From the NCBI GenBank assembly GCA_964106915.2, contig OZ066915.1: 64,000 bases of DNA; one strand, given 5' to 3'. Shown in pieces: positions 7,066-25,538 of the stretch. Below the pieces are notes generated by a model. It did not search any database and was not told where the DNA came from. It worked only from the letters and a program-made list of their open reading frames with translations. Source of the stretch: Podarcis gaigeae. Lineage: Eukaryota. Position numbers and translations under genes: made by a program. Each line of letters begins with the position of its first letter. Position 1 is the stretch's first letter.

Positions 7066-10000
7066 GTAACTTTGCATTATGTTCTCTGTTTGGATTGTGC
7101 CATTGTGCTTTGAAAACAGTTCATAGTGGACGTAATACTGCTTGGATGCGATGTCATATTTACTGTAAAGTTGACTACAAATATTTAATTCTTATAACAG
7201 TTAAGAACGGGTCATACTACCCACCAGCCTTTTTTACTAAAGAGCTATAGTTGAGGACAAGGGAGCAACTGTGAAATTAATGGGTTTCTCTGTATATATG
7301 CAAGGAACCTAAGTAATAAAAAATGATTGGTGAATATATTATAGGAGTACATAATCACCCATGTAGATTCAGTGGATGATCCTGCTGAAATGCATGATGT
7401 CCATGTGGTTTAGTGGTTAGAGTACTGGACTCGGACCTGGAAGACCAGGGTTCAAATTCCCACTTATCCATGACGCTCACTGGGTGATCTTGGACCAGTC
7501 TCTGTCTTTCAGCCTCACATACCTAACATACCTAACCTGGACTGTGTTTCCCTCCTAAGGCAAAGGGTAGAATACTAATAAAGAGAGCAAAACAGAAAGA
7601 CCAGATAAGAATTCAACAAGAACACTGTTATTCAGAATGGAAAGGTCTATGTATTTTTAACTGTATTTTACCTTCCACAGGGACACATCTGGGCAAGGCA
7701 GATTCTGCACCATATTTCGTTCCTATTCCAGAGGGGCCCAGGTAATCACAATTCTGCCATCTCTAAAATATGTCACTGTAAAGAATTAACTAAAAAGAAA
7801 AGAGCTACAATAAGAGGTGGGGGAACTATACTTACTTATTGTACTACTTGCTTTCAAAAATTGTTATACAATTTGTTGCTGCTGAATAAAGGGAGCATCC
7901 TTTGAGTCACCAGAAATAAATTATTTTAGAGAAATGTTCAGATTTGTTAAGTCCTCAGTCTGCTCCTCTTTTTCCTGGTTAAATAAAGGAACGGTTACAC
8001 AAAATTGTGTGATGTACTGTGTACCTTATCTATGTGTCAGGCTGATCTAATCTTCTTTATTCCCTCAGGGCGTGATATTGGTATATGATATTACAAATCG
8101 CTGGTCATTTGATGGCATTGATCGATGGATAAAGGAAATAGATGAGGTAAGACACATCTCTGAATGTTTCATATAATGCCTAAGAAAATGATTGAACTAC
8201 ATGATGACTGAATGAGATGGCTAGAATGTGGGTGGCTGAAAACTCATGACAAATCCACTTGAAGGTAGCCTAAAACCCATTTGAAAGAGTTTGCAGTAAC
8301 AGGGAGCTTTCTTTCCTGCCATCAAAACTATGTCACCTTAGAGTTGCTGTGGGTGGCAAATGGATACCTAACTGCATGTCTTGACTATCGAGGGAAGTAA
8401 TTGACATCTTGCTGTGACATGTGAGACATTTTGCAGATAAAATTGCTTATATCCTGTTTGCCTTAAAGTCATTCCCTTTCTCAAACACTATATTTGGACT
8501 TGGATGACACCAACTCTTGTCCAGTTCCTGATCTTCTTCTTATAACATGCAGCAGGTGGCCTGTCAGATGATTCCAAGCATTCCTGGTGCTCATTCTACC
8601 TTGATCAATAGCAGTTTGACTTCTGGCTTGGTTTTCAAACTGGGACTGCTGTAGTTGCCTTGGTGAATGATTTTCATCTTCAGTTGGTTGTGGTAACTCT
8701 ATCAGACACATTTGATATGATCGACCAGAAAGTTTATTCTTGAAACTTTTACATACCCATAATTCTATGTTGAAGGGTTGTTGTTGTTGTTTTAAAAAAA
8801 TACAAATTCTGCAACTTATATTTGGCAAAGCAATACATTTTTTTACCACCTGCTGATTCTGTTTGGTTATTATATTTTCTTGCATTGGGTTTTCTTGATG
8901 GAATCCACCTATAGCACAGCACTATGGACAAAGGGAATTAAAGAGTTGTTGTTACTGTTGTTGTTGTTAATGATCAGTATTTTGTTGAAGAAGAGGGTGA
9001 GAGACTTCTAAGCTAACATTTTGCTGTCTATCTTTACTTAGCATGCTCCTGGTGTACCCAAAATCCTTGTTGGCAACCGCCTGCATCTGGCCTTCAAACG
9101 ACAAGTATCCACTGAGCAGGCCCAGGCCTATGCTGAAAGATTAGGCATGACATTCTTTGAAGTAAGCCCACTCTGTAATTTCAACATCACAGAGTCCTTT
9201 ACGGAACTTGCAAGGATTGTGTTAATGAGACATGGAATGGACCGGCTGTGGAGGCCAAACAAAGGTAAGTTACACAAAATCATTTGCTTTATCTAACTCA
9301 TGAGCCAGCTCTGGGCCAGCAAGCCACAGGAAGTGGTCCACTAGCCCCATGAAGCTTTTATCTCCTCATATCAGTGTTGTGATGCTGAGCACAAGATGAG
9401 GAGCTAATCTTTAAAGAACAGGCAGAGAGAATTGAAAAGGAATAGGAAGACTTTTGCCCCACTCAAAGAGAGAGTGAGAGAGTGTTGTGTATGTGTTTGC
9501 GTGAGAGAATGCTGTGTGGTTGCAGATGTGGTGAGTGTGGTGTATATGTGTGTATGAGAGAGTGCTCTGTGTGTGCGTGCGCACATGCAGCATTAATATA
9601 CATTGGCCGTGCTGGGGAACTATGTTAAAAAACTAATGGTGGGGAGCAGTATGCAGGTTGTAGATTAGCCACCCTGCTGTAAACAGTATGACAACTGAGT
9701 GCCAAACTTGGAAGCACCCTTCCTCCCCACTCACTTCCCTTGTCTGCTTTGACCATGCTCAGCATTACATCTGTAATGCTGTAACCGGACATGGTTAACA
9801 TTTACAATTTCCAGAGAGTGAGTCATGCTAGTCTCTTGCAGCAAAAACAACAGTCTTGAACAAATTTATCACAGCAAAATCTTTCACTTCATCAGATGCA
9901 CAAAGGAAACCGGTGCTTCATATTACCTCAGGTGTGATGGATATGTTGGAAAGGCTTATAAATTGATATCTCTCCTTCTCTAAGGTGGAAGGAAGGAGAA

Positions 10001-10787
10001 ATTCTACCCCTAAATAATTTGAATAAGTACCTGCAACCTATACATGGGTTGTTAGAGAAAAGGAGGTGACTAAAGTGGATATTCAAGCACTGAAGTGCTG
10101 TTTACCTAAAATTTACTTCAGTGGGCCCCAGGAATTATGCTGCCATCTAGAGCTGGAGGTTGTAGTATGTATTTATGTATGTATGTATGTATGTATGTAT
10201 GTATGCATGTATGTATTTGGCTGTTTTTCTTTTCAGGGGGAGGGTTATGTGTTGTTACAATTTTTTTATTATTATTTTCTTCTTCCCCGTTTTCTCCTTG
10301 TTAAATCGTTGCAACATCACCTTTATTCATAGAGGCAAGCCATAGTTATGGGGATTCAAGGTAGAATTAGGAAGGAACTTCAGAAGCAGTGAAAAGAAAC
10401 AGAACCCGAGAGCTCTGAAAAATACAGTGAAGTCAAAGTTGTGCACTTGTGTCACCTTGTGGTTATTTAGAATCATGTTATGACTAATCTTCATGTTTTT
10501 GCTTCTTGTTTTAAGTCCTGAGTTTGCAAGATCTTTGTTGCCGCGCCATAGTTTCATGCACCCCAGTGCACCTTGTGGACAAACTTCCACTCCCTGTTGC
10601 CTTAAGAAGCCATCTCAAATCGTTCTCTATGGCCAATGGACTTAATGCTCGGATGATGCACGGACGTTCCTACTCTCTCACTGCCAGCAACAACAACAAA
10701 AGAAATAGTCTGAAGAAAGCCAAAATTATCCGTCCACTCCAGAGCCCTCCAAAACACTGCACGAGAAATAGCTGTAAAATCTCCTAA
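7005..10787 (+). CDS. RAB40B: Ras-related protein Rab-40B (5'-partial; coding exons 2-6: 7005-7065, 7681-7741, 8069-8146, 9042-9264, 10516-10787)
   Basis: Manual splicing at GT-AG sites gives [40 protein letters not shown]...[16 protein letters not shown]...[24 protein letters not shown]...RNSCKIS*. This is a Rab GTPase domain with the Rab40-type GNRLHL G4 box, a SOCS box and C-terminal [20 protein letters not shown] and adjacency to WDR45B favour RAB40B over RAB40C. The P-loop exon is not in the window. Confidence 0.95.
7404..7540 (+). mobile_element. tRNA-derived CORE-type SINE
   Basis: A-box TGGTTTAGTGG, B-box GGTTCAAATTCC, followed by CORE-like GGGTGATCTTGGACCAGTC. Confidence 0.7.
7681..7741 (+). 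CDS. RAB40B: RAB40B coding exon 3 (61 bp)
   Basis: ccacag|GGACACATCT...GCCCAG|gtaatc; encodes [20 protein letters not shown] (G3 box). Confidence 0.94.
8069..8146 (+). CDS. RAB40B: RAB40B coding exon 4 (78 bp)
   Basis: cctcag|GGCGTG...GATGAG|gtaaga; encodes [26 protein letters not shown]. Confidence 0.94.
9042..9264 (+). CDS. RAB40B: RAB40B coding exon 5 (223 bp)
   Basis: acttag|CATGCT...AACAAAG|gtaagt; encodes [22 protein letters not shown]...[11 protein letters not shown]. Confidence 0.94.
9468..9590. repeat. Degenerate (GA)n/(TG)n low-complexity tract
   Basis: gagagagtgagagagtgttgtgtatgtgt...gtgtgcgtgcgcacatgc. Confidence 0.75.
9812..9900 (-). mobile_element. Old Penelope-like terminal fragment with collapsed hammerhead remnant
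   Basis: Layout resembles the 14.0-14.17 kb and 24.5 kb copies; the - strand reads TGCAT-CTGATGAAGT-GAAAG with stem II deleted. Confidence 0.4.
10165..10216. repeat. (TATG)n microsatellite
   Basis: gtatgtatttatgtatgtatgtatg... Confidence 0.9.
10516..10787 (+). CDS. RAB40B: RAB40B last coding exon (SOCS box and CKIS prenylation motif)
   Basis: tttaag|TCCTGAGTTTGCAAG...TCCTAA; matches ORF-track 10524-10787 [33 protein letters not shown]...SCKIS. Confidence 0.95.
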
Positions 10788-14057: not shown

Positions 14058-14212
14058 CAGCATATATATATATATATATATATATATTTAATGTCCAGTA
14101 GCACCTTAGAGGCCAACTACCAGTAAGTTAGCTCAGGATATAAGCTTTTGTGTGCATGCACACTTCTTCAGACTTAACTGTCAGGGGTCCTTTACCTTTA
14201 AGGTGCAACTGG
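13973..14212. mobile_element. Chimeric insert: Penelope-like fragment + (TA)n palindrome + Sauria SINE 3' tail
   Basis: Bounded by the 12-bp direct repeat GCTGTTTTTTGT (13961-13972, 14213-14224). Shares gtgttggtctg / tccagtagcacctta / gtgtgcatgcacacttcttcag with 24509-24644; gtcaggggtcctttaccttta matches the 46.66 kb SINE tail. Confidence 0.7.
13998..14088. repeat. (TA)n microsatellite with 66-bp perfect palindrome
   Basis: ATGCTGACAA(TA)23TTGTCAGCAT at 13998-14063, followed by a second (AT)n run. Confidence 0.92.
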
Positions 14213-15860: not shown

Positions 15861-18800
15861 CCTTGTTTTGTCCTAATACAACAGTGCTTGGCCCAGCCCA
15901 GATGCTTTACCTCTTGTACATTGCCTCATCCTGTTTTCCTTTAGTCTTTCTCTTTAAAAACCTGCATATATTGAGCTCCTTGTTGGGCATGAGTGTCAGG
16001 CTTGCTCTCCTACTCAATGCCATTTTCACTGCAACTGATGCATAATTCAACAGTTCCCACAAGCAGATGCCAAAGCTGGACTTAGGGCTAAGATGTGTGT
16101 TTTGGCCCAGTTGTGCACTGAATCATTCTCTTCCTCAGATTGCTTTGCTTGAATTCTCATCAAACTGCAGCTCTTTGAGAGGTAGCTGCTTTCTTGGGCA
16201 TATGAATTTGCATGCAGAATTGAATGTCCTGAACAGTTTTATTGCTTTTAATCAAAGGGCACATAGCAGCAACATTATGACCTGCAACATCTCTTCTGTG
16301 TCCCACTCACAGTAAAGAAGCAAAATTTCTAGATACCCTAAATGACTGTGCCAAATGACTGGAACCAACTAGAAAGTAAGCAACCCTGAGGTTAATCTTG
16401 AGTAGCGCCCAGAACCTGATGCAAGATGTAATTGTTGTCATGCCAGTTGGGAGCAGTGACCATAGCACTATTAAATTAAATGTGCTTTGATTTCAAAACA
16501 GGAAACTTCCCCAAAGGGAGGAACTTGGTAAAAAGGAAGTTGAAAGGCAAAGTCAAGTGGGTTGGATCACTCCAAATTGCTGGGGACTTGTTTAAAAATG
16601 CAATATTAGAAACTCAGCTGGCGTGTACACCATAGATGGCAAAAAGTATCATGAGGGCCAAGAGAATGCCAGTTTGGTAATGTGCAGAGTCAAAGAAGCC
16701 GTTAGAGGCAAGAAGGCTTCCTTTAACAAAAGGAAGTCTTGTCCAAATGGAAGAGAACAAAAAGGAACCCAAAATGGAGTCTCCCAAGAATGGTTATTGG
16801 TGTTTATGCTTTATAACTTGTTCACAAATGATCAAGAGTTAGGAAGGGGTGAGCAGTGAAGTGCCCACATTTATTGATGATACTGAATTGTTAAGGGTCT
16901 TTAAAATGAAAACAGATTGTGAAGAGCTCCAAAAGTACCTTTCCAAATTGAATGAATGGTTGGTAAAATGGCAAATGCAACTCATTGTAAATGAATTGTT
17001 AGCACTGGGAACAATAATTTTACATATACGTTCATGGGCTTTGAACTAGTGGTGACTGACCAGGAATGAGACTTTGGGTAATAGTGGATGTCAGCGCAGT
17101 GTGCAGCAATTGTGAAAAAAGCCACATTCCATGCTAGGGGGGCATTAGAAAAGGAACTGAAAATAAAACTGCCAATGTCACAATGACATACAAATCTGTG
17201 GTACAACCACATTTGGAAAATTGTGTAGTACAGTTCTGGTCAGCTCACCTCAAAAAAGGATATTGTAAAGTTGGGAAAGATTCAGAAAAGTGCAACCAAA
17301 ATGATAAGGGGAATGGATCTTCAAGGGAAGGTTGCAGTGTTTGAGGCTTCTTAGTTTAGAGAAAAGGTGAATCAGAGGTGACATAGAAGTCTATAAAATT
17401 ATGCATGGCATGGAGAGAATGGACAGAAAAGCCCCCCCCCCCACTAGAACTGGTGGACCTCTAATGAAGCTGAATGTTGGAAGATTCAGAACTGATGAGA
17501 GAAAGTACTTCTTCACGCAGTACATCGTTAATATGTGGAACTCACTTCAAGAGGAGGCAGTGATGTCCACCAACTTTTGGATGGCTTTAAAAGAGGATTG
17601 GACAAATTCATGGAGGATAAGGCTATCAATGGCTACTAGCCATGATAACTGTTTCCCCAGTCGGAGGCAGTAATGTTTCTGAATACCAGTTACTGGAAAG
17701 CACTAGAGGGAAGAGTGCTTCTGAGCTCGGGTCCTGCTTTTGAGTTTTCCACAGGCATCTGGGTGGCCGCTGAAGTACAGGACGATGGACTTGATGGAGC
17801 ATTGGCTTGATCCAGCAGGCAGTTCTTATGTTCTTACAATTATCCCTAGTTAGTAGCAATCACAAATAGTTTGTCATTTTAATTTGTTAGGAAAGCTAGT
17901 TCAAATTGAGTGACTACACCAGTTATGTGCTTGCAAATTGAGGAGTGTCCTATGTTTATTGTGCTCCTGTTTGTTTCATAATTGTTTTTCTAAGAAAATC
18001 ACACTTGTTTAGGTGCACATTTAACATTTCATGTGTTCCCCTAAAAATACAGTGTGTGAGGCATCCCAAATTGATGTGGCCCTTAGTGAATGAGTTAGGA
18101 AAAATAGTCATCCTAGCTAGTGTTCTTTTTTTTCTGCCAAGAAAATAGGGTATGACTCACTAGAGTAACACAAGTTAGGGATCAACTTCCTTGTAGTAAA
18201 CCTCACCCAAGAAAAGCTTATGCTTTGCTGTTCTTTACCTTGAAAATATTTTATTGCAGTAATCTGAGTAGTCACTTCAGTGGAGTTTCATAGAATATGT
18301 AAGCTAGTAAAATGTTCATTCTATTTGCATCAGAAACTTTATATCATGTGGGTTGTATGGGCTACACCTACAGGATGCAGTTTCCTAGGGTGTTTGTTTA
18401 TAGGCTAGTAGAGTTGTTGGAATTCCAGCTTTTATCTTGGCAACAAATTCAGATGTGCTGGTTTTGACTTATAAAGCCTTAAACAGCTCAGGACTGCAGT
18501 ACCTCAGGGACCACCTCTCCCCGCATGAAATTATTTGACTCCTGCAATCATCACCCGAGGCCCTTCTTTGGGTGCCTCCCCCACAAGAGGTCTGAAAGGT
18601 ATCAACACAAGAACGGGCGTTTTATGTGGTGGCTCATAAATTCAAGGTTCATTCTAAACCATTATAATGAATAAAGTTTTAAACTGGCTGAAAGGAAAAA
18701 AATATTTAGATTGATGTACTTGATTGTGCTTCTTGGTAAACAAATAAATGGGGAAAATAATATGCAGTTACTATAAATGCTGAAGTAGAAGAACAGAAGG

Positions 18801-21800: not shown

Positions 21801-24800
21801 AGAAAACAGCACAAGAGTCCTTAATGGTTTAGAATGAACCCTGAATTGTGTCATCTTGAGAGTCTGCGTGGCATTTTAATAGGTGCATTGTATAGTCTTT
21901 AATTTACTGTTAAGCCTACTGGGAAGACTGTATCATCTAACACAGAAGTTGAATTTATGAAAGTCTTGGCTTTAAAGTTTATACAGGAAGTTGGTAACCT
22001 TTGTGGTTGTAGTGATTACATTTGAAAATACGCATGCTGTTATTGCAAATATTGGTCAAGAGATAAACTCTGCATTCTCTGGCAGCCTGTAACCTGCATT
22101 GCTTCAAATAGGTTCCCTGGCTATTCGTTCCTCACTCAAACCTTTCATACTGCTGCCTCACTATTGCATGCCAGAATCTTCCAAAATATGTAACAAATGT
22201 GTTATATACTAGGTTCAGACTACTGTATACCGTATAAATCCAGTTCATGTAGACTTTCTCAATTTTCCTGTCAAAATACTGACTTTAGTGGCATTGATCT
22301 TGGATATATTCATGCAGATAAACCTGAGAGATTTCCAAATATGTGGGAAGGATAGCACCGGATAACAAAAATAATTCCATATGGAAAGGGCAAAGATGTG
22401 CAGCTACAATAGTGTAGGGTGGTGGAAAAAAGACAGAGCCATCATCTGGGAAGTGAACAGCTGTATCCTAATGTTGTGTTCTGGGAAGAACTTATGTAGT
22501 TTTTGAAAGGCTCCTCTCACATCTTTAATGTGTGCTGTTGCTTTTCAAGGGGACCCTAATAAGAATATTTGATACATCATCTGGGCATTTAATCCAGGAA
22601 CTGCGCAGAGGGTCTCAGGCTGCCAATATCTACTGGTAAGGTTTATTGTTTTGTTAATGTGTTGGGGGGATTGGAGGAATCATGCTTTGCCTTGATCATC
22701 AGCAAGATGAGGGAGTGGCTGTTGTACAAATGGGGGTTTCATGCTTTAAAACTCCCCCCCCCCCCATTTTCCAGTTAAGAGACATGAACTTCCTGTTTGT
22801 GAATAATTTTCTTCCATCTGTGACCTACTAATCATACAGCTGATACTGTCAGCTGGCTTTTCACATTAGCCAGTTCAGTGTTATATGTAGCACATCAGAC
22901 AAATATAAACATTAGCCTTGGTATCTGAAAATTCCTTGGGGGGAAATGTGACATCACAAAGGTAGAGAAATCAGCAGCAGTACAATTCAAGAGGAATTTA
23001 ATCCAATTGAGAGTTGAGCATTAAACAAAAAAGAAAAAAATGGGAGTGGGGGTTAAGTCTGAGAGGTAGCAGTGTATGAGATATACAATAAAGCATCAGT
23101 TCAAACATGTGAACTTTTCTATAGCTTTTAAAAGTTGGGGAAACAGGGATCCCTTAGTTCTATGTCCATAGGATCTTTGATTTCTGCACCTTTTTTCAAA
23201 CTCAGAATGAAAACTCAGAATTAAAGTAGCATTCATCCTGCAACTGTGTTGGTTTATGGAGGAACTAAGATACTAATTAAGAAGTAATTATGCCTCACCA
23301 ATATCTGTGCGCCCTTTTCATCAGCTACATGTATTATGGAGGAGTTAATGCTTTTTAAAGGTGTGAATATATTTCTCTCCCTCCCGTCTATGTGGTTTAC
23401 TTCTGGGGTGAATGCTCTTTCACTTTCTACCACTTCAGTTGCTGATGCTGCTTCACTCTGCATCAATACCTCATTGGGTATGTTGTTGCAAGGTGGCATT
23501 GCTTTAGATAACCTCCCCAAAACCTACAGTTAGAAACTCTTGTTTTTAAGATACTTGGGAAAGAGGTTGGCTTATAGTGTTTGAAAAGTTGCAGTATATA
23601 CACATAGGCATTTCTTTAAAAAGTAACTTATTCCATGACAGTGGTGATATAAGCAGACTTGTTTCTGACTTCTCCTTTAGCATTAACTTCAACCAAGATG
23701 CTTCTCTCATTTGTGTGTCAAGTGATCACGCCACAGTGCACATTTTTGCTGCGGAGGATCCTAAGAGGAACAAGCAGTCGAGGTAAGCAGCTGGGGCCAG
23801 TGTGATGATCGCTAGGCAAAAATGATTAGGTAACTTCATACAGGAAGAATGTATCAGTAGCTAAAATAAATAATTTAAATAATCACTGACCTAGCCACTG
23901 TGATCCACACGACGGTCACCTCCAGACTGGATTATTGTAACTTGCTGTACATGGGACTACCCTTGAGACTGACCCAGAAACTTCAGCAGGTGCAGAATGC
24001 CGCGGCGAGACTCCTTACAGGGTCCTCGCTGAGGGATCACATTCACCCGGTGCTATACCAGCTGCACTGGCTCCCGGTGGAGTACAGGATCAGGTTTAAG
24101 GTGCTGGTTTTAACCTTTAAAGCCCTATATGGCCTAGGACTCTCGTACCTACGGGACCGCCTCTCCTGGTATGTCCCACGGAGGACCTTACGGTCTTCAG
24201 ACAAAAACACCTTGGAGATCCCGGGCCATAGAGAGGTTAGGCTGGCATCAACCAGTGCCAGGGTTTTTTTCAGCTGTGGCTCCAATCTTGTGGAACGCTC
24301 TGTCACAAGAGACTAGGGTACTGGGGGACTTGACATCTTTCCGCAGGGCCTGCAAGACGGAGCTGTTCCACCAGGCCTTTGGCCAGGGCACAGCCTGACC
24401 CCCTCCTTTGGCAATCCTCACAGAACTCTAGCCCAATGGTTGCCATTAATCTGATTTGAACTAATTTTATAATGAAATGATTTTAGAATGTTGTATCATT
24501 TTACTGTTACAGATAGGTAGCCGTGTTGGTCTGCCATAGTCAAAACAAAACAAAAAATCCTTCCAGTAGCACCTTAAAGACCAACTAGGTATCTGAAGAA
24601 GTGTGCATGCACACGAAAGCTCATACCAAGAACTGACTTAGTTACATTTTACTGTTGTTAGCCGCTCTGAGCCTGGCTTTGGCTGGGGAGGGCGGAATAT
24701 AAATAAATTTTTATTGTTATTATTATTAAAATAATTGTTAACCTTAATACGTGCTGCTAGGAGTCAGTTTGCTTCAGTGCCTGAACTACTGGTTTGAGAT

Positions 24801-25538
24801 GATGCTGAAGAGAGCTTTCTTTCTTTTTCAGCTTAGCATCAGCCAGCTTCCTGCCCAAATACTTCAGTTCCAAATGGAGTTTTTCCAAATTTCAGGTTCC
24901 CTCAGGCTCTCCCTGCATCTGTGCCTTTGGAACAGAGCCGAATTCTGTCCTAGGTAAGAATCTCAAGTTTCACCAAAAATCAAACAAGGCCCCTCACTAT
25001 GCATATCCCAAACATAGCCTATGAATTCAAGCAGCTGTGCTCACAAACAAGCTTCTTAGAGGAATCTACCTCTGTCCTTGATGGGAGTGTGATTTATATA
25101 AATGGGTTTTAACTCCAGATTAATGTCATATGATTGCAGCCTAAGATTGTAAAAATGTTTAGATTGCAAGGAATGTTGAACACTCGAGATTGTTACTTGA
25201 GATCTCACGGAGGGCAGTTTAATGATTCATCAAGAACTATCTCGGGTGGGCCAAGCCATGTGCTAGAACTGATTGGCGTATATAGCGCAGGTCTTATAGG
25301 AGAACATTTCTTAGCCTGCAGGTAATGTGGCGTCTCTTGCTGCTCTCACAAGCAAAAGCTGTGCAGTGAAACACAATGTGTAAGCAATTGACTTCAGTTG
25401 CCAAACTGAAAACAGTATCTTTCTCTTGCAGCGATCTGTGCAGATGGCAGCTACTACAAATTTTTATTCAATCAAAAAGGGGAATGCTCCAGGGATGTCT
25501 ATGCTCAGTTCCTAGAAATGACTGATGACAAACTTTGA
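15193..25538 (+). CDS. WDR45B: WD repeat domain phosphoinositide-interacting protein 3 (WIPI3), complete, 10 exons, 344 aa
   Basis: Exons 15193-15259, 19303-19377, 19777-19878, 20546-20633, 20751-20845, 21579-21769, 22550-22635, 23681-23782, 24832-24953 and 25432-25538 sum to 1035 nt in one open frame: [35 protein letters not shown]...[13 protein letters not shown]...[12 protein letters not shown]. The PROPPIN LRRG lipid-binding motif is at 22601-22612. Confidence 0.97.
16400..17836 (+). mobile_element. Degenerate CR1 LINE (ORF2 remnants + 3' UTR) in WDR45B intron 1
   Basis: GSSDH endonuclease end, [27 protein letters not shown] remnant, [22 protein letters not shown]-terminus, TTCTTATGTTCTTA tail. 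Confidence 0.88.
18442..18636 (+). mobile_element. L2 LINE RT fragment
   Basis: gtgctggttttgacttataaagccttaaacagctcaggactgcagtacctcagggaccacctctcc is homologous to the L2 copies at 24.1 and 37.6 kb. Confidence 0.7.
19303..19377 (+). CDS. WDR45B: WDR45B exon 2
   Basis: ttttag|GGTGC...CAAG|gtgaga; [24 protein letters not shown]. Confidence 0.94.
19777..19878 (+). CDS. WDR45B: WDR45B exon 3
   Basis: ctccag|AATTT...AAAG|gtaaag; [33 protein letters not shown]. Confidence 0.94.
20546..20633 (+). CDS. WDR45B: WDR45B exon 4
   Basis: ctgcag|TGATG...GATAG|gtgagt; [28 protein letters not shown]. Confidence 0.94.
20751..20845 (+). CDS. WDR45B: WDR45B exon 5
   Basis: tttcag|AATTG...TAAAG|gtaagt; [31 protein letters not shown]. 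Confidence 0.94.
21579..21769 (+). CDS. WDR45B: WDR45B exon 6
   Basis: tttcag|GTCTT...GAAAAA|gtaagt; [17 protein letters not shown]...[10 protein letters not shown]. Confidence 0.94.
22550..22635 (+). CDS. WDR45B: WDR45B exon 7 (LRRG motif)
   Basis: ttcaag|GGGACC...TACTG|gtaagg; [28 protein letters not shown]. Confidence 0.94.
23681..23782 (+). CDS. WDR45B: WDR45B exon 8
   Basis: ctttag|CATTAAC...TCGAG|gtaagc; [33 protein letters not shown]. Confidence 0.94.
24509..24644. mobile_element. Penelope-like element terminal fragment with internal inversion
   Basis: 12-bp TSD CATTTTACTGTT (24497-24508, 24645-24656); second half is inverted relative to the collinear copy at 14095-14173; carries the hammerhead motif. 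Confidence 0.75.
24588..24627 (+). ncRNA. Minimal type I hammerhead ribozyme motif (Penelope-associated)
   Basis: GGUAU-CUGAAGA-A-GUGUG(CAUG)CACAC-GAAA-GC-UC/AUACC: conserved cores, 5-bp stem I (GGUAU:AUACC), 5-bp stem II, palindromic AGCU minimal stem III. Activity is not demonstrated. Confidence 0.7.
24832..24953 (+). CDS. WDR45B: WDR45B exon 9
   Basis: tttcag|CTTAGC...CCTAG|gtaaga; [40 protein letters not shown]. Confidence 0.94.
25432..25538 (+). CDS. WDR45B: WDR45B exon 10 (coding part, stop TGA)
   Basis: ttgcag|CGATC...CTTTGA; [34 protein letters not shown]. Confidence 0.94.

Follow-up and report, generated by a model that had tools for sequence, protein, structure and literature searches.

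When a self-cleaving motif turns up on the sense strand of an intron, the question arises whether it cuts the pre-mRNA that carries it. We consider this question for intron 8 of WDR45B in Podarcis gaigeae (assembly GCA_964106915.2, contig OZ066915.1), within a window of 64 kb (the whole stretch of DNA that was analysed) in which a minimal hammerhead ribozyme had been predicted. Our reading, to which we assign a probability of roughly 0.88, is that intron 8 harbors a young, 136-bp, doubly truncated EN+ Penelope-like element (PLE) insertion with its family's standard hammerhead, likely a passive passenger that causes no appreciable cutting of the pre-mRNA.

Host gene and location of the motif

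The host gene was recognized as WDR45B by an open frame of 344 aa, assembled from ten coding exons with AG/GT boundaries, the sixth of which matches WIPI3 in the PDB upon translation (E 3.7e-37). This exon model bears out that the hammerhead lies on the sense strand of intron 8 (Table 1), and the predicted cut after C24622 falls 209 nt before the intron end, in agreement with the distance of about 210 nt to the exon 9 acceptor given in the original prediction. Four RNA runs of a related organism, of each of which 6-12% was read, all contain reads that join exons 8 and 9 (1, 7, 1, and 3 reads).

Two further observations, both made from translations, concern the surroundings. RAB40-family exons lie upstream of WDR45B at about 9042-10784 (+) in the window, and by synteny we take this gene to be RAB40B. 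Intron 1 of WDR45B contains a decayed, presumably CR1-like, LINE 3' remnant at about 16600-17700 (+).

Table 1. Features of WDR45B intron 8 and of the insertion that it hosts (positions in the window)
Feature	Position	Strand	Basis or remark
WDR45B exon 8	23681..23782	+	exon 8-9 joint in related-organism RNA reads
WDR45B intron 8 (1,049 nt), host of the insertion	23783..24831	+	exon model and RNA reads
Older LINE 3' remnant	23879..24496	+	tail resumes at about 24657-24725
Left TSD, 12 bp	24497..24508	+	direct repeat
Inverted arm (pseudo-LTR tail in antisense)	24509..24587	-	92.7% over 82 nt to element L113
Junction G	24588..24588	+	T in the parent pseudo-LTR; completes the fifth stem I pair
Minimal type I hammerhead	24588..24627	+	sequence, loose-pattern search, and folding
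Sense arm with hammerhead	24589..24643	+	55/55 identical to both L113 pseudo-LTRs
Right TSD, 12 bp	24645..24656	+	direct repeat; one untemplated A before it (24644)
WDR45B exon 9	24832..24953	+	exon model and RNA reads

Sequence and predicted fold of the motif

Every part of the motif sits where it had been predicted, both catalytic cores being intact: GGTAT (24588-24592) is followed by CTGAAGA (24593-24599), A (24600), a 5-bp stem II with a 4-nt loop (24601-24605/24610-24614), GAAA (24615-24618), GC, TC (24621-24622), and ATACC (24623-24627). All of the minimal hammerhead core (CUGANGA...GAAA...UH) is preserved. Stem III is replaced by a palindromic AGCU, loop III counts zero nucleotides, and stem II together with its loop (24601-24614) forms a perfect 14-nt palindrome. 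Set beside the feature list in PMC4209133, the motif also displays the extra base 9/10.1, the G10.1-C11.1 pair, the palindromic 15.2-16.2, the missing loop 3, and a helix I of 4-5 bp; the minimal, dimer-type architecture originally described is thus confirmed.

Stems I and II are predicted in five contexts ranging from 40 to 532 nt, with pair probabilities of 0.53-1.0 and 0.90-1.0, respectively. The fold of the 76-nt stretch is not unusually stable relative to shuffled sequences (z -0.96). A looser hammerhead pattern matched once in the window where 0.07 matches were expected (5 of 100 shuffles matched), and a general descriptor returned no second hammerhead on either strand of the 64 kb. The Rfam hammerhead models, a check suggested along with the prediction, matched no hammerhead family in the window or in two narrow stretches, and thus not at the motif either, which we take to mean that the minimal form falls outside the models.

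Anatomy of the insertion

The motif belongs to an insert of 136 bp that is bracketed by a perfect 12-bp direct repeat and interrupts the tail of an older LINE. Over long alignments the LINE remnant is 80-89% identical to other copies at fetched loci, and in DNA contigs other LINE copies join 24496 to 24645 without the insert. Its translation has no match in Pfam, and from that translation we take it to be of the L2/CR1 type. Contigs across the locus itself, from four DNA runs of four organisms, all break inside repeats, the 24496-24645 joints among them being those of other LINE copies.

Within the insert two arms lie head to head. The inverted arm begins at the distal tail end of the family, and the sense arm stops 51 nt past C3. 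Most copies have tail ends well beyond that point, and the landmarks that follow C3 in the family, namely the first ATG at 94 and the tail at 125, also lie beyond the intronic sense arm. Direct pseudo-LTRs, an inverted 5'-truncated arm, a tail, and a TSD, which are the hallmarks of EN+ PLEs, are all present in the family. The original prediction had the motif sequence exactly right; it missed the TSD, the second, inverted arm, how many copies exist, and the non-parental nature of the fifth stem I pair.

The parent element and its copies

A protein search of the own genome yielded four open frames of more than 900 aa (L113-L116). L113 is laid out as pseudo-LTR, ORF, and pseudo-LTR, with the hammerhead in both repeats, 3,010 nt apart (positions 574 and 3584 on the element strand). 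Its ORF of 910 aa encodes an RVT_1 domain (438-586, E 9.5e-12) and, at the C-terminal end, a GIY-YIG domain (808-856, E 7.8e-06), and a DKG motif is visible in the translation. Since the arms match L113 (Table 1), the Penelope-like origin of the intron 8 motif that had been proposed is established, with the motif present in both pseudo-LTRs of this genome's own element. The intronic copy must be young, because its sense arm is identical to the intact element at all 55 positions. L113-L116 are near-identical to one another, and L113 has retained both pseudo-LTRs; this near-identity, along with the open frames, suggests a family that may recently have been, or may still be, active.

Genome-wide, 1,591 exact copies of the 40-mer were counted, versus 0 for the reversed control, and a 20-nt core pattern that leaves out one base at one upstream place has at least 12,668 copies. 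We sampled the first 100 places listed for this core, which amount to 80 stretches in the first 5.6 Mb of contig C1 and contain 106 cores. All core bases and the cleavage triplet are kept in 81 of these, from which, extrapolating from one chromosome end, we infer about 9,700 intact cores genome-wide. With so many, an intact sense-strand copy in some intron is to be expected many times over.

Other members of the family deserve a mention. In some insertions (loci L073, L038/L039, and L072) the hammerhead, or its 3' half, is repeated in short tandem arrays; as candidate cis-dimers of natural origin, these would lend themselves better to an activity test than the WDR45B copy. The window holds a single further relative, an older Penelope-like fragment (14094-14172, minus strand; 81% to L113) that precedes the WDR45B start codon. 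This fragment has kept its 5' core and stem II, and its G12 has become A.

How the short two-armed copies may form

The native pseudo-LTR has an Inr-like TTCAGT that continues directly into the 5' strand of stem I, with a TATA box 30 nt upstream of it. The native upstream sequence is kept in 42 of the 106 sampled cores, and the other 64 are 5'-truncated. In 58 of the truncated cores the break point falls within 8 nt of C3, in 40 of them 4-6 nt upstream of it, and 37 carry an inverted arm. TSDs of 10-16 bp flank 22 of 30 sister copies. The 3' extents form two clusters, at 70-79 (54/106; a variable T run ends the measurement) and at 120-129 (28/106), as expected for two start sites flanking the tail.

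These observations can be accommodated by the following scheme. The element protein would cut both target strands, and each target end would prime reverse transcription at an internal site of element RNA that is uncleaved. The two cDNAs would then extend to the 5' end of the RNA, which likely lies just upstream of the ribozyme, at the TATA/Inr-like site. Joining of the two cDNA ends head to head would finally yield one antisense and one sense arm. The RNA start at stem I and the head-to-head joining are the parts of the scheme that we infer from the copies; in the RNA runs of the related organism, no pile of read starts was seen at the start of stem I.

The truncation pattern fits the mechanism published for PAc, the Poseidon element of Anolis carolinensis. 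For PAc, uncleaved RNA is reported as the main insertion substrate, with both target strands cut and extended, and the shortest active template has to include the first 172 nt of the ORF (PMC11167929). Inverted arms and tails are described as standard for PLEs (PMC8557442, PMC3846280), and self-priming on an antisense template has been put forward as another route to head-to-head repeats (PMC3846280). The TATA plus Inr-like layout is not universal among PLEs, since the D. virilis promoter is reported to be TATA-less and internal (PMC2377424).

A recurrent G at the junction

The five-pair stem I of the original prediction (GGUAU:AUACC) stands insofar as all five pairs are present. The parent, reading GUGUAU, has only four, and the intronic copy reads GGUAU because of the G at the insertion junction. 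With its additional pair, stem I of this copy is predicted to fold more reliably than that of the parent. The G is no peculiarity of WDR45B: among non-native junction bases it accounts for 1,512 of 2,385 (63%).

Several sources of this G were considered. Directly before AGTGTATC, at the Inr-like A, the preceding base is G in 34, A in 46, and T in 20 of the 100 matches listed (hand count), and the 34 do not support cap copying at that A. A native G-bearing subfamily is rejected as well: GGUAU was absent from the first 100 of 2,906 TATA-linked matches (some loci counted twice), and the upstream flanks of the 30 G-form copies examined are unrelated. Microhomology with stem I fails as a general source: of the 69 G cases within the 100 matches listed, a single one bears the full TTCTT signature (hand count). 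Two candidates are left. The cDNA end may fold back on its own stem I complement and gain one base by extension. Alternatively, an RNA may start at that very G and have its cap copied, which also fits. We slightly favor the fold-back, because the G excess is specific to the pairing position. We found no description of a recurrent junction G in the main texts searched, and it may be in print; PMC13000458 holds no passage on cap copying.

Does the motif cut the pre-mRNA?

Probably it does not. Lacking loop III, the motif would depend for cleavage on a second RNA as its partner and probably also on the element protein, and neither would be supplied in cis. The intron 8 copy has no downstream element sequence in sense orientation. 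The suggestion that the motif could cut the WDR45B intron therefore finds no support, given that it is one of thousands of young copies, that the pre-mRNA has no second motif, and that the downstream sense sequence is absent. Published work also opposes it: a lone minimal hammerhead of S. mansoni gave no detectable cleavage and its dimers little (PMC4209133), and the PAc hammerhead of the anole did not cleave without protein, nor were RNA-seq reads reported to end at its cut site (PMC11167929). The caveat attached to the prediction, that a lone minimal copy might be inactive, describes the most probable state.

The RNA data point the same way, though weakly for this copy. None of the four runs shows a pile of read beginnings or ends at 24622/24623 among the 100-370 family reads over the site; these reads come from other copies, which is why the result says little about intron 8, and the RNA depth in the unique part of the intron is about zero. 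Standard RNA libraries lose 5'-OH and cyclic-phosphate ends.

Genomic junctions provide a different record. About 84 lie exactly at the cut site (55 of the 100 listed, out of 153 matches; hand count), the remaining 45 listed being point changes at C17. For comparison, 27 of 77 matches are junctions two bases downstream, and about 34 are estimated two bases upstream (30 of the 100 listed, out of 114 matches; hand counts). The cut site thus exceeds these two neighboring positions about 2.5-3 times, with microhomology to stem I explaining about 20 of the 55. As junctions go, this amounts to a few per cent of the 2,385 at the stem I start, a rough figure, as the patterns differ in subfamily coverage. 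The excess may reflect cleavage that occasionally takes place in vivo. Like the more reliable stem I of this copy and the strong pairing predicted between element RNA and the antisense arm, it speaks against the passenger reading. In Xenopus, according to a preprint, introns contain fewer related retrozymes than expected, though 42-44% still overlap introns (10.64898/2026.07.22.740005).

Alternative explanations

The rival that survives best is cleavage in trans. Here, element RNA would anneal to the antisense arm of about 80 nt and thereby tether its own hammerhead, perhaps with protein, so that a small share of the pre-mRNA is cut in cells expressing the element. Co-folding of the insertion and nt 1-138 of the element RNA predicts a long duplex (-173.5 kcal/mol versus -26.8 and -27.9 for each alone), the motif core is intact, and the modest surplus of junctions that the genome shows at the cut site would suit such an event, as would the weak cleavage reported for dimers of PLE minimal hammerheads (PMC4209133; PMC6765202). 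However, the predicted hetero- and homodimers pair via the 14-nt palindrome of stem II (-28.0) and not via the 4-bp AGCU stem III (-14.9 with both stems II formed); the 14-bp duplex prevails because stem II and its loop are palindromic. Such a dimer is not the active fold (pseudoknots are outside the model), and it could be either a docking step or an inactive trap. Moreover, the splice acceptor lies just 209 nt past the cut, a distance that is transcribed in seconds. The CPEB3 ribozyme, with a half-life of 2-3 min, is reported to have 9,931 nt to the next exon (PMC10919898). Finally, element-sense reads are no scarcer by the ribozyme (44% and 40% at 24635) than in the tail (37% and 38% at 24557) in two stranded runs, a weak, multi-copy measure. 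On balance, we regard trans cleavage of this pre-mRNA as unlikely.

A broader version of the same idea can be formulated for the whole family. With an estimated 10,000 or so intact hammerheads, many of them intronic and many with an antisense arm able to hybridize to element RNA, the RNA-protein particle of an expressed element might dock on these arms and cut host pre-mRNAs such as that of WDR45B in trans, across the whole genome. This is a speculative proposal to which we give little credence; if it held, PLE carriage would come at a new cost, the cutting of host pre-mRNA in trans.

Domestication, with the ribozyme regulating how WDR45B is spliced, as a counterpart of the conserved amniote intronic hammerheads or of the CPEB3 ribozyme, strikes us as very improbable. 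The sense orientation, the intact core, the predicted folding in context, and the nearby splice acceptor are what one would look for. On the other hand, about half of random insertions fall in sense, and an intact core needs no selection since it is the norm in this family (81/106). The identity of the sense arm to an intact element marks the insertion as young, and a match to an Rfam hammerhead, a stable stem III, and a visible loop-loop contact are all missing.

A chance look-alike, which would suit the fold z-score and the missing Rfam match, is refuted by the 1,591 exact copies, by the location in both pseudo-LTRs of an element with RT and GIY-YIG domains, and by the presence of all listed features of the published minimal motif (PMC4209133). 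A non-LTR retrozyme is ruled out by the single motif and the lack of a tandem unit.

Comparison with known systems

The passive PLE insertion that we favor resembles the metazoan PLE minimal hammerheads described by Cervera and de la Pena (2014, PMC4209133), which are reported for turtles and snakes among others. Both are of type I with a conserved core, the extra 9/10.1 base, G10.1-C11.1, palindromic 15.2-16.2, and a short helix I; both reside in pseudo-LTRs and occur mostly as lone truncated copies. They differ in that the family sequence is new, that the 5-bp helix II and its loop form a perfect 14-nt palindrome, and that the fifth stem I pair is a junction product here.

PAc (Frangieh et al. 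2024, PMC11167929) is likewise a reptile EN+ PLE with a hammerhead, whose internal RT starts define the tail and whose insertion extends both target strands; an equivalent course would account for the short two-armed copies in this genome. The PAc ORF begins inside the ribozyme, whereas here the first in-frame ATG lies 94 nt past C3. The insertion also follows the canonical PLE unit of head-to-head inverted arms, a tail at one end, and a TSD, with an inverted 5'-truncated copy and a tail of 30-40 bp (PMC8557442, PMC3846280), except that both arms are tiny and the ORF is absent. According to the same sources, the pseudo-LTR of A. vaga Pen2a has a TATA box and an Inr-like site too.

With the amniote intronic hammerheads of RECK, CTCL, and DTNB (PMC6155905) and the HDV-like ribozyme of CPEB3 (PMC10919898), the WDR45B motif shares a sense-strand location in a host intron, self-cleavage being a prediction in our case. 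The former are conserved across lineages and drawn with tertiary contacts, and the CPEB3 ribozyme is conserved with a measured half-life, whereas the WDR45B motif is recent, high-copy, and minimal. Judged by its sequence, it is a PLE minimal hammerhead on every feature examined and not a conserved amniote intronic hammerhead.

Significance

As a feature of WDR45B, the motif matters little, being a random copy of a known repeat class: the insertion is everyday debris of a transposon, of minor mechanistic interest on the side. The family, on the other hand, is a convenient natural dataset for what PLE hammerheads do. From its thousands of young junctions it can be seen that most of the RNA that was copied had not been cleaved, since 5' ends pile at the start of stem I and not at the cut site. 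The junctions also reveal a G that is added time and again and supplies stem I with its fifth pair.
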